64,000 bases of DNA from assembly GCA_934132775.1 (NCBI GenBank), contig CAKPAA010000007.1, positions 21,599-85,598 on the forward strand. The letters run 5' to 3'. This DNA comes from an uncultured Clostridia bacterium. Its GTDB lineage: Bacteria; Bacillota; Clostridia; TANB77; UBA1234. Position numbers and translations under genes: made by a program. The notes beneath the pieces were generated by a model. It was not told where the DNA came from. It was given only the letters and a program-made list of their open reading frames with translations, and ran no database searches. Below, in pieces: positions 3,530 through 29,390 of the stretch (positions are counted from its first letter, which is position 1; each line of letters starts with the position of its first letter).

Positions 3530-4606
3530 CTATTTTGTAGCATTTTTTGAAATGTTGAGCAGCACTCCACAAGAGCACAGCAATATTATAAGTGCCGTTC
3601 CACCGTAACTGAAAAATGGTAGTGGTATTCCTGTTACTGGGAATGTAGCTGAAACTATCGCTATATTAAGTATTGCTTGAACACCAACAAGTGATGTTAT
3701 TCCAACTGCAAGTAACGTTCCAAACATATCTGGTGCTTTTATCGCTATTGCAATTCCTCTCCATATAAAAACGCCAAATAGCAATACAACAAACATAGCC
3801 CCTATGAATCCTAACTCTTCTGCTAATATTGCAAAAATGAAGTCGTTATGTGGCTCTGGAATATACATATATTTTTGTGTACTGTTTCCAAGTCCAACTC
3901 CAAATAATCCACCACTTCCTATTGCATAAAGTGATTGTGCTGCTTGCCAGCCTGAGTCTAACAAGTCTTCAAATGGATTGAAAATATACTGCAATCTTTT
4001 TACTCTGTACGGTTCTTGTATTACTAGAAATCCAAGTCCAAGAAGTGCAACACCAACACACGATGCTATTTGCCAGCCTTTTAATCCAACTGTTACAACC
4101 ATTATTCCAGTTATTATACAAGTAATTGCTAATGCACTCATATGTGGTTCTTTATATAAAAGTGCGCATATTACACCAACAAATAGCATAATTTTGAACA
4201 GTTTTCGCCAAAACACTTTATCTTGTTTAGTTACAACTGAAAGCTCTGATGCCAAAAATACTATAAGTGCAATTTTCATAAGCTCTGACGGCTGAAATCT
4301 AATTCCGATTTTTATCCATCTTGTTGCACCTTTAACAGTTTGCCCTATTCCTGGCACTAAAACCAGCACTAATAAAACTATTGCTACAATTATTGCTATC
4401 ATCGAGAATTTTTTATATATTCTATAATCTACAAATGAAATAATAATCATTCCTGCAATTCCTATTATCGCATTTATAAGCTGACTTTTAAAATAAAAAT
4501 AACTGTCTCCCTCATATGTAAGTGCACTTGGGGCACTTGCGCTAAGCACCATTATTACCCCCATTGCAAGTAACACAAATATAGTTACTAATAATCCAAT
4601 ATCCAT
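3530..4606 (-). CDS. SEDS-family peptidoglycan glycosyltransferase (FtsW/RodA/SpoVE)
   Basis: Multi-pass membrane protein with an FtsW/RodA-like sequence, immediately downstream of mraY in the dcw cluster. Confidence 0.85.
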   Translation of the reverse strand: MDIGLLVTIFVLLAMGVIMVLSASAPSALTYEGDSYFYFKSQLINAIIGIAGMIIISFVDYRIYKKFSMIAIIVAIVLLVLVLVPGIGQTVKGATRWIKIGIRFQPSELMKIALIVFLASELSVVTKQDKVFWRKLFKIMLFVGVICALLYKEPHMSALAITCIITGIMVVTVGLKGWQIASCVGVALLGLGFLVIQEPYRVKRLQYIFNPFEDLLDSGWQAAQSLYAIGSGGLFGVGLGNSTQKYMYIPEPHNDFIFAILAEELGFIGAMFVVLLFGVFIWRGIAIAIKAPDMFGTLLAVGITSLVGVQAILNIAIVSATFPVTGIPLPFFSYGGTALIILLCSCGVLLNISKNATK

Positions 4607-4705
4607 TTGTTTTTTCTTTTTTCTTTTTGCTAATTCATTATTAACCTTTACAGCGTTTCTCTCCTGCGTAACTATATTATCGCCCCCTTTTATGCCTCAT
4701 TGAAT

Positions 4706-5692
4706 TTATATTATTGCCAAAGCTAATATTGCAAGCAATAACGTAACAGTCCAAAATGCTGGAACTATTATTGTTTCTTTTATGCCACACAATTCAAAAT
4801 GATGATGAATTGGTGCCATTTTAAATAATCTCTTTCCACCAGTAACTTTAAAATATACAACTTGTAAAATTACTGAAATCGCTTCAATAACACAAACACC
4901 CGCAACCACAATAAGTATAAGTGGCATTTTCAACATAAGTGCTACACTACAAAACGCACCACCTAGTGCAAGTGAACCTGTATCTCCCATAAATACTCGT
5001 GCAGGATACATATTGAAAAACAAAAATCCAATTGTAGTACCTGTAACAATTGCAGAAAATGCTGACATATCTTTATTTCCAAATCTCATAGCTGCAACTG
5101 TAAAAAACAACATTATTATTGCAGAGACTCCCGAAGCTAAGCCATCTAAGCCATCTGTTAAATTCAAACTATTCGTGCAAGCTAGTATTATAAACACTGC
5201 ACACGGTATATACAGCCAAACAGGAAGAGTAATATATTCTTTCAATATTGGTATATATGTTTCTGTTCCAAAATCTATATATGTTAAATAGACAACAAAA
5301 GCTGTCGCAACAATTATCAGTCCGAGCATCTTTAAACTTGGTTTTAACCCCTTTGGATTTTTCAAAATCAATTTTATAAAATCATCTATAAATCCAATAA
5401 GTCCATACCCAAGAGTTACAAGCGCAACTGGCAATACATTTTTATACTTTGAGGCAACTCCAATTGATGTTATCATAATTACTATCAGCATTATAATTCC
5501 ACCCATTGTTGGAGTTCCACTCTTTCTAAGATGTTCTTTTGGTCCATCATCTCTTACTACCTGCCCAATTTTAAATTTCTTCAAAATTGGAATAACTATA
5601 AATCCTAAAATAATTGTTAATATAAAAGATACAACTAACGCATCGGTTTCAACTGATGAATTTTCTATTACTGACTTTATTTTTTCCAACAT
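4706..5692 (-). CDS. mraY: Phospho-N-acetylmuramoyl-pentapeptide transferase
   Basis: MraY-like polytopic protein with the DDxxK/D motif (IGFIDDFIKL), in dcw position. Confidence 0.93.
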   Translation of the reverse strand: MLEKIKSVIENSSVETDALVVSFILTIILGFIVIPILKKFKIGQVVRDDGPKEHLRKSGTPTMGGIIMLIVIMITSIGVASKYKNVLPVALVTLGYGLIGFIDDFIKLILKNPKGLKPSLKMLGLIIVATAFVVYLTYIDFGTETYIPILKEYITLPVWLYIPCAVFIILACTNSLNLTDGLDGLASGVSAIIMLFFTVAAMRFGNKDMSAFSAIVTGTTIGFLFFNMYPARVFMGDTGSLALGGAFCSVALMLKMPLILIVVAGVCVIEAISVILQVVYFKVTGGKRLFKMAPIHHHFELCGIKETIIVPAFWTVTLLLAILALAII

Positions 5693-5710
5693 ATTCTCCC
5701 CCTACTTTAC

Positions 5711-7198
5711 TTACCAGGCATACAAAGTTTTATCTTTTGGCTCTGGAAGTTTCTTCAAAGCTTCCGCTATCACTTCTCTATCATCAAAGTGATGTTTTTC
5801 ACCATTTATTTCTTGATATGTTTCATGACCTTTTCCTGCTACTAGAACTAAATCATTTTTTTCTGCTTGCTTTAACGCATATTCAATTGCTTTCTTTCTA
5901 TCAACTATAACTTTATACTTTCCACTTGTTTTTCTTATTCCAGCTTCAATTTGAGCAATTATATCTTCTGGCTTTTCTGACCTTGGGTTATCAGAAGTTA
6001 TAACAGTAAGACCAGCAATTTTTCCTGCGATTTCACCCATCATAGGTCTCTTGGCAGTGTCTCTGTCTCCACCACAGCCAAACACACAAATTATCTTTCC
6101 TTTTGTGTATACCTTTGAAGCTCTTAATATATTTTCCAAACTATCTGGTGTATGCGCATAATCTACCATAACAGTAAAGTTTCTTGTCGTTGGCACAATT
6201 TCAGACCTACCTGGTACCTTTACGTTTTCAAGTCCAGCAAGCACATCTTCAACACCTGCCCCAAGTCTTATTGAAGCACAAATTGCTGCAAGTGCATTAT
6301 AAACAGTAAATCTACCTGGTATATCAACCTTTATTCTTTGTATAACTCTATTGAAAGGCATCTTAAAGTCTGAATAGCTGTTAGTTATTATTATATCTCT
6401 TGCACACACATAAGGATTATTATCTATACCATACGTTGTGATAGGGCAAGTTGCCATTGCCATCAGCTTTTTGGCATACATATCATCAGCATTTACATAC
6501 CCCTCTTTTGCCATTGTAAACAGCTTTGCCTTTGCTGCTAAATAATTATCAAATGTTTTATGAAAGTCCAAATGATCTTGTGATAAGTTCGTATAAATGG
6601 CTATATCAAAAGTATTGCCATATACTCTATCCAAAGCTAATGAGTGTGAAGAAACTTCCATAACAACTACATCAACTTTTTCATCAGCCATTTCTCTAAA
6701 CATCTTTTGCAAATCTAAACTTTCTGGTGTAGTTCTTTGAGACTCAATAACCCTGTCTCCTAAGTAATTTGCAATAGTTCCAATTAGTCCAACTTTCTTA
6801 CCTGCTTTTTCTAGTATACTCTTAATCATATATGTTGTTGTTGTTTTTCCTTTTGTACCAGTTACACCAACTAATTTAAACTCTCTCGATGGATGGCCAT
6901 AATAGTTGCAAGCAGATAGTGCAAGTAATTTTCTTGTATCTTCTGCAATAATCACAGTAACACTAGTAGGAATTTTACTTACATCAAATTCGCCATCTTG
7001 AACTGCAATTACACTTGCACCTTTTTGCAAAGCCATCTCAACATATTCATGACCATTCGTTTTAAATCCAACAATTGCCACAAACATATCACCAGGCTCA
7101 ACAAGCCTTGAATCACACCTAATTTCCTTTACTTCCTCTTCAATGTTTCCTTGAAGTTTGAATCCATCGATTCTGTCTAAAATTTTTGATAATTTCAT
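5711..7198 (-). CDS. murE: UDP-N-acetylmuramoyl-L-alanyl-D-glutamate--2,6-diaminopimelate ligase
   Basis: Mur ligase P-loop GVTGTKGKTTT and the DNPR motif typical of meso-DAP-adding MurE. Confidence 0.9.
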   Translation of the reverse strand: MKLSKILDRIDGFKLQGNIEEEVKEIRCDSRLVEPGDMFVAIVGFKTNGHEYVEMALQKGASVIAVQDGEFDVSKIPTSVTVIIAEDTRKLLALSACNYYGHPSREFKLVGVTGTKGKTTTTYMIKSILEKAGKKVGLIGTIANYLGDRVIESQRTTPESLDLQKMFREMADEKVDVVVMEVSSHSLALDRVYGNTFDIAIYTNLSQDHLDFHKTFDNYLAAKAKLFTMAKEGYVNADDMYAKKLMAMATCPITTYGIDNNPYVCARDIIITNSYSDFKMPFNRVIQRIKVDIPGRFTVYNALAAICASIRLGAGVEDVLAGLENVKVPGRSEIVPTTRNFTVMVDYAHTPDSLENILRASKVYTKGKIICVFGCGGDRDTAKRPMMGEIAGKIAGLTVITSDNPRSEKPEDIIAQIEAGIRKTSGKYKVIVDRKKAIEYALKQAEKNDLVLVAGKGHETYQEINGEKHHFDDREVIAEALKKLPEPKDKTLYAW

Positions 7199-11419: not shown

Positions 11420-11853
11420 AACAATTCTCCTCTATGAAGATATATAGCGGCCATTAAGACCGCTATATCCTTGTATTTCTTTTTGTGACAACCTCGTCTT
11501 TTCTCTTTTGTTACCATTATTTTTCTCTTTTGTAAAACGTAAAAACAAAACAAATAAAATAAGATATTTTTTTACGACTAAAAACCAAAATATTAAAAAT
11601 TTACGAATAGTGTCGCATACACCTACATTCATAACTACCAATAATACTGTTCCTGATCTTAGTCCTAATCTTTTGTTTTTTGTAGCACCCCTTATGTACT
11701 ATTTTTTCATTTGTAAATAAAGTCCCCTTAAAACTTTCATCATTTGTAAATTAAAATTTATCTTCTGTACTTCTAGCAACGTTAACATTGCTACCACACT
11801 TTAAAATGTGCTTTTTCTGATGTTATATTTAAATTAGCTCTTTTGGAACTAAA

Positions 11854-12310: not shown

Positions 12311-12340
12311 TCACCACTTAGCTCCACTTTTCCCCACCTT
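12311..12340 (-). promoter_or_regulatory. MraZ operator: three direct GTGG repeats at 10-bp periodicity upstream of mraZ
   Basis: Minus-strand sequence GTGGGgaaaaGTGGAgctaaGTGGTgaata (ccac at 12315, 12325, 12335) lies between the -10 element and the mraZ RBS. Confidence 0.55.
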
Positions 12341-12377: not shown

Positions 12378-12590
12378 TGTTTTCGCAATTTTTTCCAAAA
12401 AAAATTCGACAAAATTTCTTATTTTTCGCCTTGTTCAAAAATTTACATCTCAAATTTTCTTAATATAACAGAAAGTATAAAAAAATTATCCGAATTTTTG
12501 CTTATATTTCAATAAAAAACGCCACCTTATAAACTGAAACTAAAAATGTTATTTTTTAATTTCAGAAATAAAGTGACGTTTAAAATAACC

Positions 12591-12640
12591 AAAAAAAGAC
12601 TGCACTCATTTCGAAAATAAATTCACTAATGAGTACAGCC
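12591..12640 (-). terminator. Rho-independent terminator of the 814-aa gene
   Basis: 13-bp imperfect stem ggctgtactcatt / aatgagtgcagtc followed by U7 on the minus strand. Confidence 0.5.
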
Positions 12641-12755
12641 TTCTATTTTTATATTAACTTTTAATTCAAGTTCATTACTTTATTTGATTATCACACTAAG
12701 TTACACTAATAATACTATTTAGACTTTCTGAATATTAAAAACACACATTGTCCGC

Positions 12756-15200
12756 TTATCTTTCATCTTTGTCGTTGTCTTGTTTATGTGCCTTCTCGTA
12801 AATATCTTTATATTGCTGTCTTACATACTTTCTTCCATCTTTGATTTCGTGTCCGTCTTTTTTTACATCAAACGTGCTATCTTTTATTCTTCTTGTTGGC
12901 TTAGGTTGCTCTGGTCTTACATATGAACGAGTCTTTTTTGGTGAATCTATCACTAATTTTTCTTGATTTTGAGAGTTTTCAATTGTTCTTGGCTTAAAGT
13001 TTACACTAAATTTGCCATTTTCATCAAAAACACATTCAAAAGTTGGTATGTATGGTTTTTTATTCATCTTTTCCAATTCTGTCTCCTCGTACTTCTGCAA
13101 CTTAGCATATCCAAATGTTGTTTTTCCTGTTGTTACTAATCTCGCATCACAACTATGTTTGTATGGACCATATGGAGATTTTAATGCGTTGCATACATCT
13201 TGTGCTGTTAATGCTGAATCTAATGCAATTGCCATTTTAAATTGATTTTCTGGTATTGTTGGATCATCCCAAGTTCTTATTGCATCACTGCTTAAATCTA
13301 ATTTTCCATCTAGTTCATCTCTAGTTTTAGTTTTAAATCTTCCCCAAACTCTCTTTGCTGGATTTGATGACATCATTCTTGTAAAGTCTGTATCTTTTCC
13401 GCCATTTTCTTTTTTCATTTCTTTGCATAGTTTCTTTAATCCATCTTCGCCATACATCTCTAGCATTTTTCCTCTTAAATTCCCAATAGCTTTGTCTAAT
13501 GCTTTTGATGGATTTTTAATGTATGAATCAATATCTTTTTCTTTACGAATTAGCTTATCGCCTCTCTTCTCAAAGAAACTTAATTTTCCATCTTTCACAT
13601 ACATTTTATTTTCATTTTCAAGTAAAAACATATCTATGTCTTTTGGCATTGAAATACTTTCGCAATCCAATTCAGTAGATTTACTTTTCTCTTCTTTTTG
13701 ACCAAATAATCTTTCAAAGAAACTAGGTTTCTCTTTAGCTGGTAATTTTGTTTCTTCCTTTTTCTGCTGTGTTGAAGTTTCAGGTGTTTTGTTACTATTA
13801 TCCTGAGTTAAAACTGACTTAGCATCACTTAGCTTACTTGGTTGTCCCTTACCATCATTCTTTGGCAAATCTGATGGCTTAGTTTTGTTATTACTTGCTG
13901 GCTGATCATTTTTACTTTTATCTTTATCATTTGCAGACTGGTTCTTTCCATCTTTATCTTTCCTTGCCTCTGTCTGATTCTTTTGATCTTTATTAGTGTT
14001 CATTGTTTGATTAGTCGCTTTATCACTATTTTTATCTTGATTTGCGTCTTTTACCGTCTTTTCTGCATTTTGCCAAGAAGCCTCATTTTTACGATATTTT
14101 AGATGTTTTTCTTTTTCTCTTTCAACAGCTTTTCTTACGTCTGTCTCTCTCTTTTCCATTTTGTATTTTGAATGTATTCCATCTCTTTCTGCTTCAAACA
14201 CACTTTTTCTACGTTCTATATCCTCTTGCTTTCTCTGAAGTGTTGATCTATAATTCTTTAAATTTTGTAAGTTACCATTTAATGTATCAACGTCTATTTT
14301 TATTGCATTAGGGACATCTTTATTGAAATTTTCTCCAATTTCAAAAGCCGACTTACTCAAAGAAAATTTCTGTTCTATATCTTTATTATTTTCTAATAAA
14401 TCCAATAATTCAGAAGTTAGTCTATCAAATTCATCAGGATCGTACCCAGGTTCATAAACTCTTGTTCCGTCAGCTGCTATATGAAAATGGTTACTAAATT
14501 CTTGATATCTAGCATACTTTTCGTTAATCTGTCTTACTAATTCTTCGGCTCTATCTATGTCATCTATATCTTCCTTATTTTCTTTATATTCATCATCAAA
14601 TTGCTTTATGTATTCTTCCAACTCATTTAATCTATTTTGGTCAAAGTTCAAAGTTTCTTCGGACACAATTCCCCTTGCTCTATTTAATTTTTCACCAGCT
14701 AATTTCAATGCCTTTGCAACATCTTCGTATTTATCTCCTGTCTTATATCTATCTTCTAAGGTTACTTCAATATTATCTAATCTACGCACTAACATTCTTC
14801 TTTTATCTTCTGATAAATTGGGTTGAGATAGCTCTTGCATAATTTCGTCTATCTCTCTTAGCTTTTGCGTAAGCTCTAATATTTCCTGAGATGCTTCGCT
14901 TATTTCTTTTCTATATTGTTTTTCACTTTCCAAAATAGCCCTAGCATCCTCTAATCTATTAAACGCCTCTCCTGCTTTAATTTGTTCTTGTCTAAGTGTA
15001 TCCTCATTTTTCAATATTTCTGCATCAAGTTCTGATATTGCAGCATTATCCCCTTTTCCTATAGCATCTACCTTCTTATTCTTTAATCTTCTAGTCATTA
15101 TTGCCCTGTTTACAACAGCTTCAAACTGCATATTATAATTTTTTTCTAGTCTTTCAATATTTTGTTCTAACTCGTTGATTAACTTACTTAATTCATCCAT
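12756..15200 (-). CDS. Large hypothetical cytoplasmic protein (814 aa): N-terminal coiled-coil, K/D/N/Q-rich disordered middle, C-terminal globular region
   Basis: Long ORF with RBS GGGGGAT. No signal peptide or transmembrane helix and no recognisable catalytic motif. Carries its own terminator. Confidence 0.6.
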   Translation of the reverse strand: MDELSKLINELEQNIERLEKNYNMQFEAVVNRAIMTRRLKNKKVDAIGKGDNAAISELDAEILKNEDTLRQEQIKAGEAFNRLEDARAILESEKQYRKEISEASQEILELTQKLREIDEIMQELSQPNLSEDKRRMLVRRLDNIEVTLEDRYKTGDKYEDVAKALKLAGEKLNRARGIVSEETLNFDQNRLNELEEYIKQFDDEYKENKEDIDDIDRAEELVRQINEKYARYQEFSNHFHIAADGTRVYEPGYDPDEFDRLTSELLDLLENNKDIEQKFSLSKSAFEIGENFNKDVPNAIKIDVDTLNGNLQNLKNYRSTLQRKQEDIERRKSVFEAERDGIHSKYKMEKRETDVRKAVEREKEKHLKYRKNEASWQNAEKTVKDANQDKNSDKATNQTMNTNKDQKNQTEARKDKDGKNQSANDKDKSKNDQPASNNKTKPSDLPKNDGKGQPSKLSDAKSVLTQDNSNKTPETSTQQKKEETKLPAKEKPSFFERLFGQKEEKSKSTELDCESISMPKDIDMFLLENENKMYVKDGKLSFFEKRGDKLIRKEKDIDSYIKNPSKALDKAIGNLRGKMLEMYGEDGLKKLCKEMKKENGGKDTDFTRMMSSNPAKRVWGRFKTKTRDELDGKLDLSSDAIRTWDDPTIPENQFKMAIALDSALTAQDVCNALKSPYGPYKHSCDARLVTTGKTTFGYAKLQKYEETELEKMNKKPYIPTFECVFDENGKFSVNFKPRTIENSQNQEKLVIDSPKKTRSYVRPEQPKPTRRIKDSTFDVKKDGHEIKDGRKYVRQQYKDIYEKAHKQDNDKDER

Positions 15201-15389
15201 ATTTTATCCCCCTTAAACAAAACTACATATATATTATATCACATGTTTACATAATTATCTAGCTTTGCTTACAATTTCTTTTGTTTTTTAATAGCTTTTA
15301 TGGCTAATTTATATAATTTTCATATTAAATAACAAGAATAACCCTTGAAAATCTCACAAAGTATTTAAGATTTTCAAAGGTTACTTGCT

Positions 15390-15530
15390 CTATCCTTCTA
15401 CTATTTCATCTATTTTATCTAATAAATTTCCCAACTTTTCCAAATCTTCATCAGATAAACTAGCTAAATTTTCTGGTGTCATTAACTCTACCAAATTGTC
15501 TAGTTTATCTACAACCTCATCTTCGTTCAT
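15390..15530 (-). CDS. Small acidic hypothetical protein (46 aa), not in the ORF track
   Basis: ATG preceded by GGGAGGAACTAACG. Product is MNEDEVVDKLDNLVELMTPENLASLSDEDLEKLGNLLDKIDEIVEG. Confidence 0.4.
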   Translation of the reverse strand: MNEDEVVDKLDNLVELMTPENLASLSDEDLEKLGNLLDKIDEIVEG

Positions 15531-19535: not shown

Positions 19536-20159
19536 TTAGTATGTTAATCCAGCATTTGTTGCAGAATTGTCAAGAGGTCCATTTACTGAACTTACAAGAA
19601 CTACAGGAGTTGTAATATTTGGGAAAGTAATACTTGATGTATCTCCTGTCAAAGCTGCATAAGTAGTTTTATCTATAGCTAATGTATCATTTAGATAATA
19701 CTTATCTTCATATTTGTATGGAGGCCATACGAATACTTGACCATCATAAGTTACAGCATACTTAACTTCATAATTTGAAGCTGCTGGTGTATTAACTTTG
19801 ATTGTTGGTAATTTAATACCAATTGATTTTTCTGCTTTTGCTCCATCAATTATTGTGTATTGTGTTAATTGAGCTATTGGTGTAATGTCTCCACTTTGAG
19901 TTCCATCTTTACCTTCAGCTATTGTCTTGTAAGATTGTGCATCTGTAATTTCATTACCAATTGCTGCTTGATCACCTTTGAATTCTGTTGCAGATTTTTT
20001 GAAAGCATCTCTAACTTCACCAATGTTTGATACAAACTTAGAATAGTTTGCCTTTTCAATTGTTGATGTTGAAGAGTTGAATGCGATTGCTGCTAAGATA
20101 ATTACAACGATAATTGTAATTACAAGTGCTATTAAAGAAACACCTTTTTGATTTTTCAT
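19536..20159 (-). CDS. Pilin-like protein (prepilin-type N-terminus without Glu5), 207 aa
   Basis: N-terminus MKNQKG|VSLIALVITIIVVIILAAIAF is a class III signal-like hydrophobic segment. The first ~50 aa and the conserved block YTIID..IGIKLP..VNTP..VKYAVT..G.VF.WPP are shared with the 507-aa paralog at 36910..38433. Confidence 0.6.
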   Translation of the reverse strand: MKNQKGVSLIALVITIIVVIILAAIAFNSSTSTIEKANYSKFVSNIGEVRDAFKKSATEFKGDQAAIGNEITDAQSYKTIAEGKDGTQSGDITPIAQLTQYTIIDGAKAEKSIGIKLPTIKVNTPAASNYEVKYAVTYDGQVFVWPPYKYEDKYYLNDTLAIDKTTYAALTGDTSSITFPNITTPVVLVSSVNGPLDNSATNAGLTY

Positions 20160-20188
20160 AATAAATTTCCTCCTTTTATTTTTGCTTT

Positions 20189-20216
20189 TCTAGAGTATGC
20201 TTAAAATTACTCTAGA
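20189..20216. promoter_or_regulatory. Candidate operator: perfect 9-bp inverted repeat TCTAGAGTA-N10-TACTCTAGA upstream of the pilin-like gene, with a third half-site at 20245..20253
   Basis: Seen directly. Lies 17 to 45 nt upstream of the RBS of the gene starting at 20159. The TACTCTAGA(CT) unit recurs at 20208 and 20245. Confidence 0.4.
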
Positions 20217-20416
20217 CTTCTTTGTTAGTCTTAAAAGCTCTTACTACTCTAGACTAGCAAAATAATGATTTACGTTTTTTGTCAATACTCGCACAATATC
20301 GACTAAAAAACTTATTAAATCCTTTTACAACTTTGATTATAACCAATCGGTTTTAATATTGCAATAGTTATGTTCATTAAATTATTGTTACAAACTTGTT
20401 ACAGTTTTGTAACATA

Positions 20417-21784
20417 TTATAGGTATGCATCGAACAAGAATGAACCCATGTATACTTCCATAATTGGTTTTAATACTAATATTACGAATGCTATCATAAC
20501 TATACCCATGATAGACATACTTATTTGTGGTAATATCTTTATTGTTCTTTCTATTGTTATGTTTATTTCATCTTCCATGTACTCAACAATTTTGTTTATC
20601 ATATCGGTTATATCTGTTTCCATACCTATTCTAAGCATCTCTAATGCCATTCTTGGCATATTAGGCAAAGTTTCAAATGGTTCAACCCATGAATCACCTT
20701 GCTGTAAATTATCTGTCGCTGATTCAATAACAGATAAAACCACGTAGTTACTTACTGTTCCTTTACTTACTTCAAGAGCGTCTTGCAATTTAGCATTGTT
20801 AGCTAAGTTTAATTGCATAGCTTCAAAAAACTTCTGTAATTGAAGTCTTAATATAAGTCCTCCAAATACAGGCAATTTTAATTTAAACATATCCCATTGA
20901 TACTTTCCATGAATAGTAGACTTCCAAAGAATAAATGCTGTTACCAAGCCCGCTACCACTGCAACACCAATATACCAATATTTTATTACAAGCTTTATAA
21001 AATTTGACGCAGCCATAGTTGCTGCTGGAATTTGGTTTGTTAATCCCATGCTAGCATATAGGTCTTCCAATATTGGCACACCAACCATAATACCTACAAC
21101 TGTTCCAACTAGCATAAGCACTGCTTGTAGTAAAGGTCCAACTAAAGCTTTTTTCAATGCTTTTGTTCTTTTTGTACTTGTTTCTAAGTAATTCATTGCT
21201 TGAAACAACGCATTTGTAAGTGAACCTGAAAGTTCACCAACCTTGATTGTCTCAATATAAATATCTGGGAATATTTTATTGTAATATTCTAGTGTAGAAT
21301 ATATATATTCACCAGCTTCAACACCGTTTAGAATATCTTCAATAACACTTCTCATAGCTGGGTTATCTGTATTTTCTAATAATGTTGCCAATGCTCTTAT
21401 GTTAGTAAAATTTGCCCTTTTTAACAAGTATAAACTCTGTGTAAATGAAAAAACATCCTTTTTAGTTACTCTATATAAAAATGATAAATCGAGTTCAAAT
21501 GGAAGTTCTATTTCCATCTGCAAACCAGTTTTCTCTTTCTTTTTCTGATTTTCTATCATTTTTTGCTTTGCATATTTACTAACGGATGCACTTGAAGAGG
21601 TTATCGCATTCCTTTTTGCTTTCTTGTTGCTAAGTCCACCTAGTGCTTTACTTTGTTGAACTGATACAGGTTGTAGTCCATTATTTTTTAGTCTTTCCAA
21701 AACACTTTCACGTGATTCATCATCTATGGTGCCATTAACAACTTTACCATTTGACAGAACTGCTCTATATCTGAATTTAGCCAT
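20417..21784 (-). CDS. pilC: Type IV pilus platform protein (PilC/GspF family)
   Basis: PilC-like N-terminus (MAKFRYRA..G..V.G) and two T2SS-F domains in a polytopic membrane protein. Confidence 0.88.
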   Translation of the reverse strand: MAKFRYRAVLSNGKVVNGTIDDESRESVLERLKNNGLQPVSVQQSKALGGLSNKKAKRNAITSSSASVSKYAKQKMIENQKKKEKTGLQMEIELPFELDLSFLYRVTKKDVFSFTQSLYLLKRANFTNIRALATLLENTDNPAMRSVIEDILNGVEAGEYIYSTLEYYNKIFPDIYIETIKVGELSGSLTNALFQAMNYLETSTKRTKALKKALVGPLLQAVLMLVGTVVGIMVGVPILEDLYASMGLTNQIPAATMAASNFIKLVIKYWYIGVAVVAGLVTAFILWKSTIHGKYQWDMFKLKLPVFGGLILRLQLQKFFEAMQLNLANNAKLQDALEVSKGTVSNYVVLSVIESATDNLQQGDSWVEPFETLPNMPRMALEMLRIGMETDITDMINKIVEYMEDEINITIERTIKILPQISMSIMGIVMIAFVILVLKPIMEVYMGSFLFDAYL

Positions 21785-21822
21785 TGTTTTCTTCCTTTCT
21801 TATAAGTAATCTCAGCATAATT

Positions 21823-23472
21823 TTAATATGCTAATTTCTTCTTTACCTCACTTATTACTGTACGTCCATCTAGTACTTTATTAAAAGCATCTACAACAAG
21901 AGGTCTATATCCAGTTTCATAGGCTTTCTTTCTTATGTCGGTTATTGTGCCATCTGATATTATCAAATTTTTTATTTCTTCATCTACAATTAACATTTCA
22001 TTTGCAGCAATTCTTCCATAAAAGCCAGTGTAGTTGCATTTCTCGCATCCTACTGGTTCATATGTATGTTTACCTGTTAGGTCAAATTCATAATTATATC
22101 TTGTACCTATCTTTTTAAATTCATTTACTTCATCTTCTGTGAACTCTCTTTCTCTGCAACAATCTTTACATATTCTTCTTACAAGTCTTTGTGCTATTGA
22201 TGTTGCTAAAACGCTTCCTATATCGTAACTTGATATTCCAAGTTTTCTAAGTCTTGTGATAACCTCTATACTATCAACTGTGTGAATTGTTGACAACACA
22301 AAGTGACCTGTTTGACCTGCCTGTATTGCAATCTCAGCTGTTTCTTTATCTCTTATTTCTCCAAGTAGTATGATGTCTGGGTCTTGTCTTAAAATTGTTC
22401 TTAGTGAGTCAGCAAATGTAACCCTCTTATTTACTTCAACTTGATTTATTCCTGGGATTCTTATTTCAACTGGGTCTTCAACTGTTGTTATATTTATTTC
22501 GGGTCTATTCAACAAAGACAATGCACTATACAAAGTTGTTGTTTTACCTTCACCAGTTGGGGCCGCAATAACTGCAATACAGTTTCTCTTATTAAAGCAT
22601 TTATTCATAATTGTTTCTTGATCTGGATATCCCAACTCTTCCAAACCAGAAATTGTTGACTCTTTCTTCATAAGTCTTAATACAAACTTTTCACCGTATA
22701 TATTCATCTGTGAAGATACACGAATATTGTAGTCTGGATATGCTGTTATTCTACCATCTTGTGAAAGCTGTATTTCTTGGTGCATATTTGATATTGATTT
22801 TAATCTACCAATAACCTGCGCTTGCTTAGATTTTTCTATCGTAGCAATTATAAGTAACTCACCATCAATTCTGAACCTAACTCTTACTTTGTCATCCATT
22901 GGTTCGAAGTGAATATCACTCGCTCTTTTTACCATTGCAGATCTAATTATATTATCTATTAGCTGTGCTACGTCTTTTCCATAGGAATCAAAATTTTTCT
23001 CTTCTTCTGATTTCTTTTCTATGTCTCTAACTATATCATCTATGTATGATTCAAAAGTAACATAAACTTCCATTGAAAGACCTTTACTAAGCAATATTAA
23101 ACGTATCATCTTCTGTAAATCCTTATCTGATGGATCAGCAAAAGCAACTTTTATTCTATTCTCATTTAATTCAAAAGGTAATACCTTATGCTGTTTTACT
23201 ATATCCATTGACAAATACTTAGAAAAGTCAAAATTAAACATACCAGGCTCAAGTTTTATCCCCTTTACTCCAATACCTTCTGCAATTGTATTTAATAGCT
23301 CTTGTTCATCACATACTCCAAGTTTATGAAAAGCTTCTCCTAATTTCGTTCCTTTGTGTTCTCTTTGATATACAATTGCTTTATCTATATCAGACTCATT
23401 TATCAAGCCTTTTCTTATAAGCATAACACCTAATGGTGCTTTTTTCATTGTATTATTATCGAAGATTGCCAT
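21823..23472 (-). CDS. pilB: Type IV pilus assembly ATPase (PilB/GspE family)
   Basis: Walker A APTGEGKTTT, Asp/Walker B DPDIILLGEIRD, His box GHFVLSTIHT and a C-terminal tetracysteine. Confidence 0.92.
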   Translation of the reverse strand: MAIFDNNTMKKAPLGVMLIRKGLINESDIDKAIVYQREHKGTKLGEAFHKLGVCDEQELLNTIAEGIGVKGIKLEPGMFNFDFSKYLSMDIVKQHKVLPFELNENRIKVAFADPSDKDLQKMIRLILLSKGLSMEVYVTFESYIDDIVRDIEKKSEEEKNFDSYGKDVAQLIDNIIRSAMVKRASDIHFEPMDDKVRVRFRIDGELLIIATIEKSKQAQVIGRLKSISNMHQEIQLSQDGRITAYPDYNIRVSSQMNIYGEKFVLRLMKKESTISGLEELGYPDQETIMNKCFNKRNCIAVIAAPTGEGKTTTLYSALSLLNRPEINITTVEDPVEIRIPGINQVEVNKRVTFADSLRTILRQDPDIILLGEIRDKETAEIAIQAGQTGHFVLSTIHTVDSIEVITRLRKLGISSYDIGSVLATSIAQRLVRRICKDCCREREFTEDEVNEFKKIGTRYNYEFDLTGKHTYEPVGCEKCNYTGFYGRIAANEMLIVDEEIKNLIISDGTITDIRKKAYETGYRPLVVDAFNKVLDGRTVISEVKKKLAY

Positions 23473-23575
23473 TATAAATCCTCCTCTTTTGTATCAATTA
23501 TAAACCCTAATATTATTTTATAATATTTAAAATATAAGTCAATATAAAATGCTTAGTTTCAAACATTTACCAGCG

Positions 23576-23764
23576 CTACATCCTATCAGCTATATCATAT
23601 GCATTTTCTATATCAGAAGAGTATGTTTTTTGTAACTGTTCTATTTGAGACTCCTGCAAAACATAAGCACTAACACTTCTTCCATACAAAGCTATACCAT
23701 ATAAAGCAAGTACAAGCATTGACATTAACGCCGCCATTGTTATTGAACCTCTTTTTTTCCACAT
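23576..23764 (-). CDS. Minor pilin-like protein (short)
   Basis: Prepilin-like leader MWKKRG|SITMAALMSMLVLAL. Start is placed at the internal Met to avoid overlap with the upstream gene; the ORF track extends to 23830. Confidence 0.45.
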   Translation of the reverse strand: MWKKRGSITMAALMSMLVLALYGIALYGRSVSAYVLQESQIEQLQKTYSSDIENAYDIADRM

Positions 23765-23777
23765 ATTCTTCGCCCCT

Positions 23778-24248
23778 TTAATAACCTTTTCCAACTTTGA
23801 TATTATAGTCGGAAGTATAAACATTATCATCTTTTGTATAACTTAATTTTATTTTAATAATCTCTTGATTTTCTGCATTATCAAAACCAAATCCTACATT
23901 TGAAAGCTTGTCTGTTATTAAAACATTGTTTCTATATAGCTCATAAATATTAAACGTTTGATTTTCTTCATTTCTGTTATCAGAACTAAATTTAACAGTA
24001 TATTCTGTGCCATTGCTAAGTCTTAAATGTCTATCTGAAAATTCTAGCACTCTTTCAGAAGCTTTTATGTCATCTATTAAAAAAGCTTGCGCCTTTAACA
24101 CTTCGCTACTTTTGGTGCTCTTCACTGTTAAATCAGCTATCTGTGACATAAAATTAATATTCAAAAATGCAAGCGTGCCCAAAACAACAACCGACACAAT
24201 TATATAAACAGTAAGCGAAAGCATCGTTACACCTTTTTGATCATTCAT
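23778..24248 (-). CDS. Pilin-like/pseudopilin protein without Glu5
   Basis: MNDQKG|VTMLSLTVYIIVSVVVL N-terminus, in the pilus operon. Confidence 0.55.
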   Translation of the reverse strand: MNDQKGVTMLSLTVYIIVSVVVLGTLAFLNINFMSQIADLTVKSTKSSEVLKAQAFLIDDIKASERVLEFSDRHLRLSNGTEYTVKFSSDNRNEENQTFNIYELYRNNVLITDKLSNVGFGFDNAENQEIIKIKLSYTKDDNVYTSDYNIKVGKGY

Positions 24249-24704
24249 TTACATTTCCTCCTCAACTTTCAAAGTTTTTAGCTCTATTGTTCTTTTGCTC
24301 GAAGGGTCATTTTTCTTTGTGTAAAATTGTACTTCCGCATTTAATAATTTCACCTTTGAATCATCATAACTTACCCCATTTTTAGGTGGAAGATTTTCTA
24401 TCGTAGTTGTAACTGTTAAATTATATTTTTTTACTTCTGTTAACGTAGTTCTTTTTCCATTTTCATCTTCAATTACACGTGTGTCTGCTGGGTCATCTGT
24501 AATTGAATAATCCTCAATTCCAATAAGTTCACTCTCAACAGCCTTAATTAGATAAGACATAGCTATATTTTTTTGCTCTACAAGCCTATAATTTGCGCAA
24601 GTACCACTAAGCATTGATATAGCACAAGATAAAAATATTGAAATAAGCACTAATCCAACTCCAACTTCAACAAGAGAATAACCTTTTTGAGATTTAAATT
24701 TCAT
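24249..24704 (-). CDS. Type IV prepilin with a canonical N-terminal cleavage/methylation motif
   Basis: KG|YSLVEV gives Gly-1 and Glu+5, followed by a hydrophobic helix. Confidence 0.65.
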   Translation of the reverse strand: MKFKSQKGYSLVEVGVGLVLISIFLSCAISMLSGTCANYRLVEQKNIAMSYLIKAVESELIGIEDYSITDDPADTRVIEDENGKRTTLTEVKKYNLTVTTTIENLPPKNGVSYDDSKVKLLNAEVQFYTKKNDPSSKRTIELKTLKVEEEM

Positions 24705-24733
24705 ATTAAAACTCCTTCATACTTTAATTAAAA

Positions 24734-25540
24734 TTAAGCTATATTATTATTTATAAGAGTAGCAATTGGCATAAGATAATTAGTAAATATTATTGCAATT
24801 ACACTACCTATACTTAAAAAATATCCAAATGGTATTTCTTTATATTTTTTTATAACCGTTATTAGACTTCCAACAATAACAGCCAGCACAATTGAAATAA
24901 CTTGCATTCCAAAGCCAAGGAACAATCCTATCATCGCTATATATTTAATATCTCCAAAGCCGAATGGAAGTTTTTCATTTTTTAGCATCTTTTTAATAAT
25001 CACATCTATTAATATCAAAATCAATGGTATAACTAAAAATCCTAATAAATTATATAGCATACTTTCACTTAAAAATATTGCTTTATATAGTCCATTTGCC
25101 AAACCTATGAATATTCCATATAGCAACGCACCATCATGTATTTCAAGCTTTTCTTTATCAATTCCGCCTATTATGTATAATGCACACATAAACAAATAAA
25201 CAAAAAAAAGATTTATAAATTCATATATCGAACTATACACATCTATTTTAGCAAGTAATGCTATTAAAACAAATGTAAGTCCTGAAAAGATTTCTAATAG
25301 CACATATCTACTTCTTATTTTTTCTTTGCAATATCTGCACTTTCCACCTAAAAAAATGTAACTAAATATAGGTATCAAATCCCAAAAATTTAATCTATGA
25401 TTGCAAGTTGTGCAGTGTGATCTTTGATGTGTTATATCTTCTTTACGTGGCAATCTATATACTGCAAGTGAAAAGAAGCTTCCAAAAACAGAGCCACATA
25501 TAAATATTGCTAAGTATAATATAATGTTCATATCTTTCAT
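24734..25540 (-). CDS. pilD: Prepilin peptidase (A24 family, PilD)
   Basis: N-terminal Cys-rich zinc-binding region (HCTTCNHRL..DLIPIFSY..GGKCRYCKEKI) and a polytopic membrane body. Confidence 0.88.
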   Translation of the reverse strand: MKDMNIILYLAIFICGSVFGSFFSLAVYRLPRKEDITHQRSHCTTCNHRLNFWDLIPIFSYIFLGGKCRYCKEKIRSRYVLLEIFSGLTFVLIALLAKIDVYSSIYEFINLFFVYLFMCALYIIGGIDKEKLEIHDGALLYGIFIGLANGLYKAIFLSESMLYNLLGFLVIPLILILIDVIIKKMLKNEKLPFGFGDIKYIAMIGLFLGFGMQVISIVLAVIVGSLITVIKKYKEIPFGYFLSIGSVIAIIFTNYLMPIATLINNNIA

Positions 25541-25607
25541 TCCATTTCTTAAAAATTAAAGGATATACTAAAAATTAGCATATCCTTGATTTACATATAT
25601 TTGTTAT

Positions 25608-26012
25608 TTAGTCACCAGATGTATTATCAGATACGCTATCAAATTGTTGATAGTCTTCATAATTATTTCTTGTTGTAGTAACAGTCTCACTTGGTAAATC
25701 ATTGTCACCGTTTTCTCCCTTAAATGGGTTTACAGTTCCAGGAATATATCTGATTTCAGTCTGATAAATTTCAAGTTCTGATGGAGAAGTCGAGAATGTT
25801 TCAGTTGCATCTTGAGCATCTTGTATGCTTCCTACAACCTTGTAATTTTCTCTAGTTAAATTTACATATTTCTCAGCAGGAGGCACTTCCATTTTGTATG
25901 GAATACTGTCTTTAAAAACAAAAAAACCTGCACCACTAACAACAACTATAACTAGTAAAATTATAGCAACTTCTTTTAATATCAATAAAACTTTCTTATT
26001 TTTCATTAGCAA
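25608..26012 (-). CDS. Membrane-anchored hypothetical protein in the pilus operon
   Basis: Single N-terminal transmembrane helix, no recognisable motif. Confidence 0.5.
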   Translation of the reverse strand: MLMKNKKVLLILKEVAIILLVIVVVSGAGFFVFKDSIPYKMEVPPAEKYVNLTRENYKVVGSIQDAQDATETFSTSPSELEIYQTEIRYIPGTVNPFKGENGDNDLPSETVTTTRNNYEDYQQFDSVSDNTSGD

Positions 26013-26032
26013 ATCCTCCTTGTAAAACGGAA

Positions 26033-26632
26033 TTATACCTCTGGAGCATTTGGTGAAGTAACAACTCTTACACCTTCAACTCTAAAGTTTGCTTTTACTA
26101 TAGAATCTGAACTGCCACCTTGAATTGTGATTCCGTTAATTTCAAAATTTAAGTCCATATCATTTTCTAAGTCATAAATAAAATTGATTACGGAAATATA
26201 TTTGCCTGTTATATCAAATGTAAGTATATAGTTATCGTAATCAGGAGTCATCTTAAATTTTATGTCATTATCCGAAGCATAGTTTCCTATTTTTATCCAC
26301 AAATAATCAAGTAAGTATCTCTCAATTTTATTTGCCTCAGCAATATCTCTTTCAGATGCTGTTGCAGCAAGCATATCGTATTCTTGTTTTTTTGTTTCAT
26401 ATTTCTTTAATGAAGTTTCAACATTTCCTTCTTCAACGACTAACTCATTATTATTCTTGTTTTTCAAAGTAGTCAACTTAGAATCTAAATTTTCCTTATT
26501 ATTTTGCACTTCTTGATAACTTGGTATATTTATCTGTACAAAACCTAAGTCAAACTCATATCCTTGAGTAGCGAAAAGCCAAGTTACATATCCTGTAAGT
26601 CCAATTAACAATATTAGTAAAATTTTTTTCAT
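26033..26632 (-). CDS. PilO-like pilus assembly protein
   Basis: N-terminal signal-anchor, coiled-coil, then a C-terminal domain. ATGA overlap with pilMN. Confidence 0.6.
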   Translation of the reverse strand: MKKILLILLIGLTGYVTWLFATQGYEFDLGFVQINIPSYQEVQNNKENLDSKLTTLKNKNNNELVVEEGNVETSLKKYETKKQEYDMLAATASERDIAEANKIERYLLDYLWIKIGNYASDNDIKFKMTPDYDNYILTFDITGKYISVINFIYDLENDMDLNFEINGITIQGGSSDSIVKANFRVEGVRVVTSPNAPEV

Positions 26633-28404
26633 CTTGGCAATTCCCCCTCTATTTGAATTTTAATATTACTATCTACAATTGGTTTACTCATCTCAACATT
26701 TTGCAAAGCACCTTCTAATTTAATTTTAGAAACTAAATAACCTAACTGTGCATATTGTCCAGATTCCGCATTTATTGTTACAACACCAGTATCTTTTATC
26801 TCAATTGTTTTAACAGTAACATTTGCAGGCATAATAAACATCAATTTACTCAAAAAATTAGGAATATCATATGTTTTCCTAGTTTGTTTATTTATCTTTG
26901 CAAGTATCGTAGCAAGCTTATTTGTTATTTCTTCATAATTTGAAGAAAGTCCATCTAAATAACTTGCATCCGATTTTGCACTCGCTATTGCTGTATCAAC
27001 TTTTTCCGTTTCAGCAAGCACCGACTTAGTTTTTTCATCAATAAGCTTATTTGAATACATAGCCAAACCTGCATAAATAATAGTTGCCGAAAGTGTTAAT
27101 GCAGCTGCTCTTCCAAGCCACAAATCAAGCACACCAAATCCAACAACTTCTTCTGTCTCTTCCTCAGGCTGTTGAACATTAGCCTCGCCTAAGCTTGTTA
27201 TAGTTGCTCCAACTGGTTCACCATCATCAAAATCAACCTTAACTTTTCCTCTTCTTTTCTTGTTATACGTTCCTGGAGGAGCATTAAGCTTTTTAGAAAT
27301 TTCGTCAAATTTTTCTTTTACAAAATTAACTTTTTCTTTCAATTTAAAATCTCTCGAAAATTCCCTAAAAGGAGTTAAATTAGCAGCCTTTTTAGCAACA
27401 ACGTTAAAATCTAATTCTGTATTTTCTTTTCCAAGTCCGTCCATCGCAAGAGCAATAGCACTGTTTACCTCGATTATGTCTTTAACATTCGAAGCATTAG
27501 TATCTAAGAAATATGGTTTTAAAATTAAACATTCTTTTTCTGTGAAAACCTCACTAAAATATAAATCAATATTATTTATTATTGCACCGATTCCCGTTAT
27601 ATATATTCTCTTTATGTTCTTCATAAAAGGTGCAAGCTTATCTTCTACGTTTTGTCTAATTTCATACAACGTAGGTACTACTACATCCAGTATATCTCTC
27701 ATTTCTGCATCGTCAGTATCATAATTAGACTCTAAATATGCAGACACTTTTTTGCAAGCTTCATACGCTTTAGCTGCTGAATTATATTTGCTTGCAAGCC
27801 TATTTATTATCTCCCCAGCTCCTAATGGAAGATTATCAACGTATTGAATTTCACTAGCATGGAACACTGTTACAGTCGTCCTATCATCTATATTAACAAC
27901 TGCACATTCCTCATCTATTCCTTGATTTTCAAATAAATTCTTTAAACTAACTGCCAATGGCTCAATCGAGCTAACTTTATAATTTTCATAAGTGGTACCA
28001 ATATTAGCAATTTCAGTTTTTGAAGTAGTAACACAAATTATTCCATTTTTATCTTGAACACCAGAATTTTTAAAGACTATGAATCTAAGTTCAGCAACAC
28101 TAAGCGGAATACCTCTAGTTTTGCCAATTTCTTCGTATTCTGAATTTACTAAATCTGCAATATCTTTCATTTTCAAATTGCTAAAAACTTGTGTGTTATA
28201 ATATTCTTCATTTGTTAATGCCAAAGCAATTGGTCCTCTTTCCATACCAACCTCAAGTGCAATTTCATTAACTGTTGTTTGAATATTGTCATAGAATTTT
28301 ACGCCAAAAGCATCAACGCTGTATTTTTCTCCATTTCTTTCAGATGTTAGCTTTGCATACTTAACCATATTCTTATCTGTGTATAGTCCTAAACAACTTG
28401 GCAT
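26629..28404 (-). CDS. Fused PilM-PilN pilus assembly protein
   Basis: N-terminal actin-like PilM-type domain, a central transmembrane helix (LWLGRAAALTLSATIIYAGLAMY) and a PilN-like coiled-coil C-terminus. Fused pilMN genes are reported for Clostridial Tfp loci. Confidence 0.65.
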   Translation of the reverse strand: MPSCLGLYTDKNMVKYAKLTSERNGEKYSVDAFGVKFYDNIQTTVNEIALEVGMERGPIALALTNEEYYNTQVFSNLKMKDIADLVNSEYEEIGKTRGIPLSVAELRFIVFKNSGVQDKNGIICVTTSKTEIANIGTTYENYKVSSIEPLAVSLKNLFENQGIDEECAVVNIDDRTTVTVFHASEIQYVDNLPLGAGEIINRLASKYNSAAKAYEACKKVSAYLESNYDTDDAEMRDILDVVVPTLYEIRQNVEDKLAPFMKNIKRIYITGIGAIINNIDLYFSEVFTEKECLILKPYFLDTNASNVKDIIEVNSAIALAMDGLGKENTELDFNVVAKKAANLTPFREFSRDFKLKEKVNFVKEKFDEISKKLNAPPGTYNKKRRGKVKVDFDDGEPVGATITSLGEANVQQPEEETEEVVGFGVLDLWLGRAAALTLSATIIYAGLAMYSNKLIDEKTKSVLAETEKVDTAIASAKSDASYLDGLSSNYEEITNKLATILAKINKQTRKTYDIPNFLSKLMFIMPANVTVKTIEIKDTGVVTINAESGQYAQLGYLVSKIKLEGALQNVEMSKPIVDSNIKIQIEGELPR

Positions 28405-28426
28405 ATCTCTTCCCCTTTTCTCTAAA

Positions 28427-29254: not shown

Positions 29255-29390
29255 TATTTCACACCTTTTCACGTAATTTTATAACATATTTATCACTTGA
29301 TTAAGCTTTCTCGCCTAAGGACTGCCGTATTTCATAATTCGATAATATTTTATATATTTAAGTAATTAAAATCAACGTTTGTTACAAAAA

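Follow-up and report, generated by a model that had tools for sequence, protein, structure and literature searches.

Clostridia use lineage-restricted division factors such as MldABC, and other substitutes for divisome components 'remain to be discovered' (PMC10693644). In Firmicutes, the arrangement in which the dcw gene cluster encodes a class B penicillin-binding protein (bPBP) together with a SEDS protein correlates with sporulation and with SpoVD/SpoVE function (PMC10693644), and in Escherichia coli MinD the membrane-targeting tag has the sequence KGFLKRLFGG (PMC5471200). Here we describe a gene for an 814-amino-acid protein that lies directly beside the dcw cluster of an uncultured Clostridia bacterium, in a stretch of 64,000 nucleotides (the window) from contig CAKPAA010000007.1 of assembly GCA_934132775.1 (positions 21,599 to 85,598, forward strand).

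We found that this protein founds a new and very narrow orphan family with an unmatched C-terminal domain. It is a cytoplasmic protein that consists of a coiled coil, a linker and a globular domain. Tentatively, we favour the reading that it is a coiled-coil scaffold, peripheral to the membrane and restricted to its lineage, which serves envelope morphogenesis at the septum of division or of the forespore. This reading would fit the architecture of the protein, the fixed position of its gene beside the dcw cluster and a short MinD-like motif, and we regard it as plausible but unproven. A scaffold confined to such a narrow clade is plausible because MldABC provides a precedent and because substitutes for missing divisome parts are still to be found (PMC10693644).

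A narrow gene family at the mraZ site

The gene occupies the following place in the window:

12756..15200, minus strand: coding sequence of the 814-amino-acid protein, stop codon included, starting with ATG (from the list of open reading frames)

This is exactly the frame that the first-pass annotation of the window, made from the sequence without database searches, had reported. Since stop codons are frequent at the window's 31% G+C, an open frame of 814 codons is not a product of chance, for which our base-composition estimate is about 1e-29. The identical protein is recorded in several independent NCBI, ENA and Logan assemblies, on several contigs, and the 90%-identity cluster that holds it has 23 member sequences. 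In G+C content (0.316) and G+C at third codon positions (GC3; 0.215), the gene matches the flanking housekeeping genes. The open reading frame is a real chromosomal gene that is maintained by selection.

Searches with the window protein returned nothing from Pfam, PHROGs, PADLOC or PDB sequences and only noise from NCBIfam. Eight divergent members of the family likewise gave no Pfam or NCBIfam match at the gathering cut-off, the NCBIfam signals being single-member, helix-rich noise, and none in PADLOC. A word-index search with the full-length protein recovered only seven relatives, at 70-90% identity; queries with residues 485-814 or 1-380 returned none and missed these known relatives too, so that we do not count them as negatives. 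An exhaustive HMMER search with a C-terminal profile against 1.84 billion representative proteins retrieved seven proteins, namely one of the window's own clade, P0024, P0025 and P0026 (E = 1e-65 to 4e-51), P0027 (E = 1e-4), the fragment P0029, and P0028. From end to end, P0024 to P0027 are 33, 31, 29 and 19% identical to the window protein, with which they have the whole architecture in common. P0028, a repetitive eukaryote-like protein of 1141 amino acids with Ig-like repeats (E = 1e-4), was rejected as a spurious match. P0029 (89 amino acids) does not represent a small protein of its own; it stems from a gene of this family in L019, a metagenome scaffold of a sixth clade, where a gap upstream and a frame change at its 3' end cut it off. 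The L019 gene lies at the same locus (4592-6685); upstream there is a scaffold gap of 100 N, the C-terminal domain is broken by one frame change, and the interruption could be that of a pseudogene or an assembly error.

Among 185,579 species-representative genomes, a scan with the diverse alignment found four carriers, all of them metagenome-assembled genomes of uncultured Clostridia or 'Eubacteriales'; a scan with peptide patterns of the close clade had found none. Metagenomes yielded two more loci, at least one of them (L016) with the label human gut, and the viral contigs, phage records and plasmid records that were scanned contained no relatives. The family comprises about six narrow clades of uncultured gut Clostridia. 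That the protein is an orphan, as the first-pass annotation had proposed, thus stands at the scale of the 1.84 billion proteins searched: no family or fold matches it, its C-terminal domain matches no housekeeping family, and its homologues, whose taxonomic distribution the annotation had suggested checking, are found only in these few clades.

At every locus, across six clades, the gene order is M16 peptidase, M16 peptidase, lgt, Spo0E-like gene, 46-codon open reading frame, the 814-amino-acid gene, mraZ, rsmH, ftsL-like gene, penicillin-binding protein (PBP) gene, murE and mraY. The Spo0E-like neighbour (Pfam E = 2.7e-11) is missing in the clade of L015, in which the 46-codon frame and the gene of the present family are still there. 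The recorded position, immediately upstream of mraZ and next to the Spo0E-like gene and the small frame, was thus correct. The word 'inserted', which the annotation had also used, does not apply, as the gene sits at the same site in every clade that has it and is native in G+C and GC3. Because the gene order is the same at every locus, we take the gene to be ancestral at the mraZ site and vertically inherited.

Its rate of change differs strongly from that of the genes around it. Identities to the window's sequences are as follows:

Clades of P0024-P0026: 814-amino-acid protein 29-30%; MraZ 92-95%; PBP 89-90%; MurE 88-94%; RsmH 83-88%; Lgt 67-86%; FtsL-like protein 50-69%
L015: 814-amino-acid protein 21%; MraZ 87%; PBP 77%; MurE 83%; RsmH 75%; Lgt 54%; FtsL-like protein 45%

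Nei-Gojobori dN/dS ratios (omega), calculated against three relatives in the window's own clade, are:

Whole gene: 0.21-0.27
C-terminal domain: 0.13-0.16
Residues 72-385: 0.17-0.21
Neighbouring genes: mostly 0.02-0.22, with 0.41 for the ftsL-like gene in one comparison

The dN of the gene is about 20-fold that of the adjacent PBP gene, and in dS it exceeds most neighbours, typically by a factor of about two. Taken together, these values clearly point to a gene that evolves fast yet under purifying selection. Coiled-coil and disordered scaffold proteins often diverge fast in sequence. The gene is a natural case of extreme contrast in rate, as it adjoins a cluster that is among the most conserved in bacteria.

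Divergence this extreme relative to the neighbours could also be expected of a poorly constrained or decaying lineage-specific reading frame without important function, and the indels in the linker, the tail truncations between strains and the frame change in the L019 copy would agree with such decay. We nevertheless consider this highly improbable: every structured region has an omega far below 1, the full-length frame (650-814 codons in AT-rich DNA) has been kept in five clades, and promoter, ribosome-binding site and terminator are conserved, while the L019 copy also holds the 100-N gap and may owe its frame change to assembly error.

Domain architecture and candidate functions

The protein is made up of the following segments:

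14031..15200, minus strand: residues 1-390, acidic heptad-rich helices, predicted to form antiparallel helical hairpins, with two small beta elements (AlphaFold2, heptad test)
14988..15116, minus strand: residues 29-71, a 43-residue extension at the tip of the first hairpin, in the window's clade only (gap in P0024-P0027; AlphaFold2 turn at 50-51)
13746..14030, minus strand: residues 391-485, disordered linker rich in K/N/D/Q/S/T and variable in length (predicted local distance difference test, pLDDT, 25-30; composition)
13701..13745, minus strand: residues 486-500, conserved island LPAKEKPSFFERLFG, a candidate amphipathic membrane-targeting helix or short linear binding motif (alignment, AlphaFold2)
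12981..13673, minus strand: residues ~510-740, compact alpha/beta domain without detectable relatives, the most strongly constrained of all segments
12759..12965, minus strand: residues 746-814, basic charged tail, in the window's clade only (absent from P0024-P0027)

The outline of this architecture had been recognised before, with other dimensions. The coiled-coil heptads predicted for about 300 N-terminal residues are borne out, in a helical part that is about 390 residues long; the low-complexity stretch has the predicted K/D/N/Q/S composition, over about 100 residues rather than about 200; and the supposed C-terminal domain of about 300 residues is indeed folded, but divides into about 230 residues (~510-740) and a clade-specific tail of about 65. 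Hydropathy agrees with the earlier view that signal peptide and transmembrane helix are both absent (highest Kyte-Doolittle mean over 19 residues, 0.74), and the lack of a recognised catalytic or binding motif was confirmed by the absence of any Pfam, NCBIfam or PDB match and of a Walker A motif.

In the N-terminal region, heptad-like windows cover 217 of the first 385 residues, compared with 21 +/- 25 in shuffled sequences, and none of 200 shuffles reached 217. AlphaFold2 predicts helices at residues 2-49, 52-124, 131-152, 159-175, 182-236, 255-279 and 304-391, mostly with pLDDT of 75-92. The region carries a net charge of -18, and Y96, R97, N173, G177, K345, Y346 and R370 are invariant in the family. 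The only PDB matches of the family profile are de novo designed single-chain antiparallel coiled coils. Independent support for the antiparallel-hairpin model comes from the extension at residues 29-71, because it is centred on the turn at 50-51 and lengthens both arms equally; it is also the least constrained segment of the protein (omega 0.41-0.70). The 5' end of the window allele is strongly divergent: codons 1-71 (14988-15200) show a dS of 0.56-0.85 against L003 and L018, compared with 0.01-0.18 for neighbouring genes, and residues 15-75 differ from all seven close relatives. This high dS suggests allelic recombination or a mosaic 5' end.

The linker (residues ~386-490) is composed of 20% K, 13% N, 11% D and 10% each of Q, S and T, and only 6% of its residues are hydrophobic. 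Between close relatives it differs by indels of 24-26 residues, and its omega is 0.42-0.49. Slippage was ruled out as the cause of the length variation, as the DNA holds no tandem repeats.

Between linker and folded domain lies the conserved island, which follows the family pattern NLP[AV]KK..[FIL]FxR[LM]F[GS] with L486 and P487 invariant. Of the four clades aligned, three retain its core, FFxR[LM]FG. In the window protein, hydrophobic residues occupy positions i, i+1, i+4 and i+5 of this core (FFERLFG, residues 494-500), as they do in the MinD tag, and the lysines K489, K491 and K502 flank it. AlphaFold2 predicts FFERLF as a short isolated helix with flanks of low pLDDT, outside the folded domain. 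The hydrophobic moment of FFERLFG is 0.49-0.52 in three clades, compared with 0.45 for the E. coli MinD tag; for the window's helix the moment is 0.52 and the mean hydrophobicity 0.09, both comparable to the tag. FFERLF thus has what characterises a MinD-type helix, being short, with a hydrophobic face and basic flanks, and not packed against a domain. The degenerate pattern is expected 0.003 times per 814 amino acids; the window's long open reading frames, with about 22,000 residues, contain it at two places, one of which is in the 814-amino-acid protein.

For the C-terminal domain, the full-length AlphaFold2 run with a shallow alignment gave an unusable model (pLDDT 25-45), and a diverse alignment of the C-terminal part was used instead. 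The resulting model, with a mean pLDDT of 73.7, a predicted template modelling score of 0.65 and a core at 83-91, answers the earlier call for a structure prediction of this part: it has a compact alpha/beta fold, for which no match was found among solved structures. The invariant residues are mostly glycine, proline and hydrophobic, together with D556, Y560, K566, K596, D603, S611, S662, Y680 and Y704. The first-pass annotation had noticed a conserved-looking spacing of Cys, Trp and Tyr here. For Cys and Trp this is not borne out: none of the five cysteines and none of the three tryptophans is invariant across the family, and C592 alone is kept in most clades. Y680 and Y704 are invariant. A Walker A motif (G....GK[ST]) does not occur in the protein, and the candidate GKTT (692-695) was rejected for its wrong spacing and lack of conservation. 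The basic tail is dispensable or variable within the species cluster, because the strain variants P0008, P0014 and P0015 (767-768 amino acids) end in '...DQTRII' in place of its approximately 65 residues.

The strong constraint on this domain invites a reading in which it is the functional core, an unrecognised enzyme or a ligand- or nucleic-acid-binding domain that the coiled coil only oligomerises or positions, which would make the protein a regulator or an enzyme instead of a scaffold. Besides the low omega (0.13-0.16), the conserved polar residues in the loop-like motifs RKE(K/R)D..Y...P.KAL, KKENGGKD.EF and ALDSA and the net basic charge of the C-terminal half and tail speak for it. As no catalytic or binding family or fold was matched, no nucleotide-binding motif is present and cysteines and histidines are not conserved, we regard this reading as possible but doubtful.

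With its helical N-terminus and the unrecognised domain at its C-terminal end, the protein also superficially recalls polymorphic toxins, and the first-pass annotation had raised the idea of an effector or toxin-like protein. A secreted or contact-dependent effector, a polymorphic toxin (for example of the LXG or type VII secretion kind), an anti-phage defence protein or a recently acquired mobile gene might also diverge fast, and three close relatives show sub-threshold matches to Pfam DUF3848 at residues 93-160 (16-21 bits, with a cut-off of 30). However, variation is distributed in the reverse of the polymorphic-toxin pattern, with a conserved C-terminus (omega as above) and a variable N-terminus and linker. 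There is neither an LXG domain or other Pfam match, nor a hypervariable C-terminal toxin, nor a partner for secretion or an immunity-type open reading frame 3' of the gene, where only the terminator and then mraZ follow. The protein has no signal peptide or transmembrane segment, belongs to no PADLOC or PHROGs family, has no relatives in viral contigs, phages or plasmids, and its gene holds the same chromosomal site in six clades with native G+C and GC3. An effector, toxin, defence or mobile origin is therefore very improbable, and the earlier suggestion is not supported.

In the scaffold reading that we favour, the acidic residues 1-390 would fold into antiparallel coiled-coil hairpins, through which the protein would self-associate into oligomers or filaments. 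The subsequent stretch of about 100 residues would act as a flexible spacer, the amphipathic helix FFERLFG would tether the protein peripherally to the cytoplasmic membrane, and the constrained alpha/beta domain of about 230 residues would bind a partner. The presumed site of action would be the septum, either that of division or that of the forespore, and the organisms concerned would be a small group of uncultured gut Clostridia that probably form spores.

Several points weigh against this scaffold reading. In the most divergent clade (P0027/L015) the FFxR[LM]FG core is lost and only NLPVP is left. The likeness of FFERLFG to MinD concerns seven residues that were recognised post hoc and lie internally rather than at the C-terminus, so that we treat it as a testable lead, and the motif could equally be one for protein binding instead of a membrane helix. 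The constrained globular domain, in which polar residues are conserved (D556, K566, K596, D603, S611, S662, Y680, Y704), could have an enzymatic or ligand-binding function that has gone unrecognised. For the N-terminal model, Foldseek against the PDB returned generic long helices only (spectrin repeats, MukB elbow, PspA/ESCRT-III, flagellin), at a best E of 0.11. Finally, the neighbourhood of the dcw cluster is a matter of position only, and guilt by association is weak because on either side a terminator, described below, stands between the gene and its neighbour.

If the scaffold reading is true, the protein would be another case of Clostridia building their division or sporulation machinery from lineage-specific parts, and it would add a protein domain without a relative among solved structures. 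The practical impact would be limited, given that the family is found in a few uncultured gut species and that nothing points to a new biochemical mechanism.

Transcription unit and neighbouring genes

The gene and its surroundings carry the following signals:

15233..15261, minus strand: candidate sigma-A-type promoter with extended -10, TAGATA - 17 nt - tgaTATAAT (consensus scan, 10 of 12 matches plus TG; consensus match only)
15208..15214, minus strand: strong ribosome-binding site AAGGGGG, 7 nt before the ATG (sequence reading)
12587..12644, minus strand: intrinsic terminator of the 814-amino-acid gene, hairpin with a 17-bp stem and then T7 (RNA fold dG -24.2 kcal/mol, z = -6.4)
15331..15389, minus strand: terminator of the upstream unit of Spo0E-like gene and 46-codon frame (RNA fold dG -25.8 kcal/mol, z = -6.4)
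12314..12337, minus strand: three GTGG boxes at 10-nt spacing just upstream of mraZ (-55/-45/-35 from the mraZ ATG)
15390..15530, minus strand: acidic open reading frame of 46 amino acids, upstream of the 814-amino-acid gene in every clade examined

The extended -10 promoter is kept with small changes in the close relatives L001, L003 and L018, and at the most distant locus, L015, its equivalent is TTGAAA-17-TGgTACAAT. A sigma-A-like promoter fits expression of the gene in growing cells. No promoter for a sporulation sigma factor was recognised by eye in the upstream alignment, which is not a rigorous test. A GGGGG or GGGAGG run lies at the same distance from the start codon in all clades. The hairpin and T-run at 12587-12644 agree with the earlier statement that the gene has its own terminator; a simple consensus scan had missed it because the loop is long. 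Every other clade also has a hairpin and T-run 3' of the gene (a T-rich tail in L015), with unrelated sequences. The terminator on the other side is conserved in position across clades, and both of its arms have changed. Because there are terminators on both sides and a candidate promoter of its own, the gene appears to be monocistronic and insulated from both neighbours.

The dcw promoter and GTGG region begins only 3' of this gene's terminator. The boxes, which we take to be the likely MraZ operator of the dcw promoter, are found at the same or nearly the same offsets in a near-identical region in all clades, including the most divergent locus. Further into the cluster, the spacer between mraZ and rsmH (11420-11853, minus strand) is unusually long, with 434 nt in the window and 267-434 nt across clades. 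It ends in a conserved stem-loop, ATAGCGGTCTTAATGGCCGCTAT (~11440-11480), just before the ribosome-binding site of rsmH; in L004 and L015 both arms of the stem-loop have changed. A conserved ATGACGAGGnTGTCA box stands in front of it. Rfam found nothing in this spacer at the gathering threshold. Within the dcw operon, the stem-loop might serve as an RNA element for regulation or processing.

The neighbourhood also bears on the question of sporulation. The window's dcw cluster encodes a bPBP with a PASTA domain and a SEDS protein, and a SpoIID-domain gene lies at 45258-46262 (minus strand, Pfam E = 6e-24). Because this gene, the Spo0E-like gene and the dcw-encoded bPBP/SEDS pair occur together, the gene content suggests that the organism forms spores. 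The 814-amino-acid protein might, then, be a sporulation-specific structural protein, of the spore coat, its basal layer or forespore-surface morphogenesis, lineage-specific and fast-evolving like other clostridial coat proteins. It adjoins the Spo0E-like gene in a window that also holds the SpoIID-domain gene, the bPBP/SEDS arrangement is sporulation-correlated in Firmicutes (PMC10693644), and the very fast divergence and the lysine-rich low-complexity linker would be in keeping with such a protein. Yet the promoter is sigma-A-like with an extended -10 and not sigma-E/K/F/G-like (in itself weak evidence), the Spo0E-like gene is a separate unit that is missing in the L015 clade where the protein remains, and there is no similarity to known coat or morphogenetic families. 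We consider a dedicated sporulation protein unlikely.

The 46-amino-acid product of the small upstream frame, MNEDEVVDKLDNLVELMTPENLASLSDEDLEKLGNLLDKIDEIVEG, is very acidic and helical-looking, and the frame is co-transcribed with the Spo0E-like gene, not with the 814-amino-acid gene. Orthologues are present in L001, L004, L007, L009, L010, L011/L015, L018 and L019, and identity to the window copy is 43-83% in other clades and 100% in L003. The product has no significant match in Pfam or NCBIfam. Elsewhere in the window, a cluster resembling type IV pilus or type II secretion systems (19536-29272, minus strand) encodes a T2SSE ATPase, a T2SSF platform protein, an A24 prepilin peptidase and a pilin-like protein of 207 amino acids, besides several open reading frames without a Pfam match, including those for proteins of 591 and 281 amino acids.

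Comparison with known systems

The island and the MinD tag are alike in their core, [FL][FL]x[RK][LM]FG, in their basic flanks and in a similar hydrophobic moment. The tag sits at the extreme C-terminus of MinD, whereas FFERLFG is internal, between disordered linker and folded domain. MinD is moreover an ATPase of the ParA/MinD family and the 814-amino-acid protein has no Walker A motif, so that the resemblance would be one of functional class only.

Large coiled-coil ATPases offer no closer model. SMC, Rad50 and MukB proteins have head domains with Walker A and B motifs, whereas the 814-amino-acid protein has no G....GK[ST] and no Pfam match, and the Foldseek hit to the MukB elbow is non-significant (E = 0.84). 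The likeness to DUF3848 (PF12959), an uncharacterised helical domain, is confined to the window's clade: residues 93-160 of three close relatives match positions 13-83 of the 95-position profile (E = 3e-4 to 8e-3), spanning the invariant Y96-R97, but these matches stay below the 30-bit curated cut-off, and the window protein and the four divergent clades show none. Helical, compositionally biased sequence inflates scores of this type. Within the library searched, no papers on DUF3848 were found.

MldABC, which acts in mid-cell division in Clostridioides difficile, is a precedent for narrow clostridial division factors where dcw-encoded synthases serve sporulation (PMC10693644). MldA carries a SPOR peptidoglycan-binding domain (PMC10693644), whereas the 814-amino-acid protein has neither SPOR nor another Pfam domain, and the genomic contexts differ. 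One could go further and propose that a self-assembling antiparallel coiled coil, an internal MinD-like tether and a partner-binding domain of new fold together make up an undescribed, fast-evolving family of cytoskeletal or divisome scaffolds, which, in a small clade of uncultured gut members, would substitute for a canonical organiser of the division or sporulation septum that Clostridia are known to lack. We see this as a rather doubtful proposition, though one worth stating.

More generally, DivIVA, EzrA and GpsB, the coiled-coil scaffolds of Firmicutes, resemble the 814-amino-acid protein in being cytoplasmic, dominated by coiled coils or hairpins and devoid of a catalytic motif, in having a short membrane element (a candidate one in our case) and in lying near envelope genes. 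The differences lie in the parts: the protein has none of their domains (no Pfam match at E <= 1) and no significant Foldseek match, it has no transmembrane segment where EzrA has an N-terminal transmembrane helix, and it adds an alpha/beta C-terminal domain of about 230 amino acids without known relatives. DivIVA, EzrA and GpsB are furthermore phylum-wide, whereas the present family is confined to a few species. Judged by this analogy, the 814-amino-acid protein seems most like DivIVA, EzrA and GpsB in its layout, while its domains set it apart from all three.

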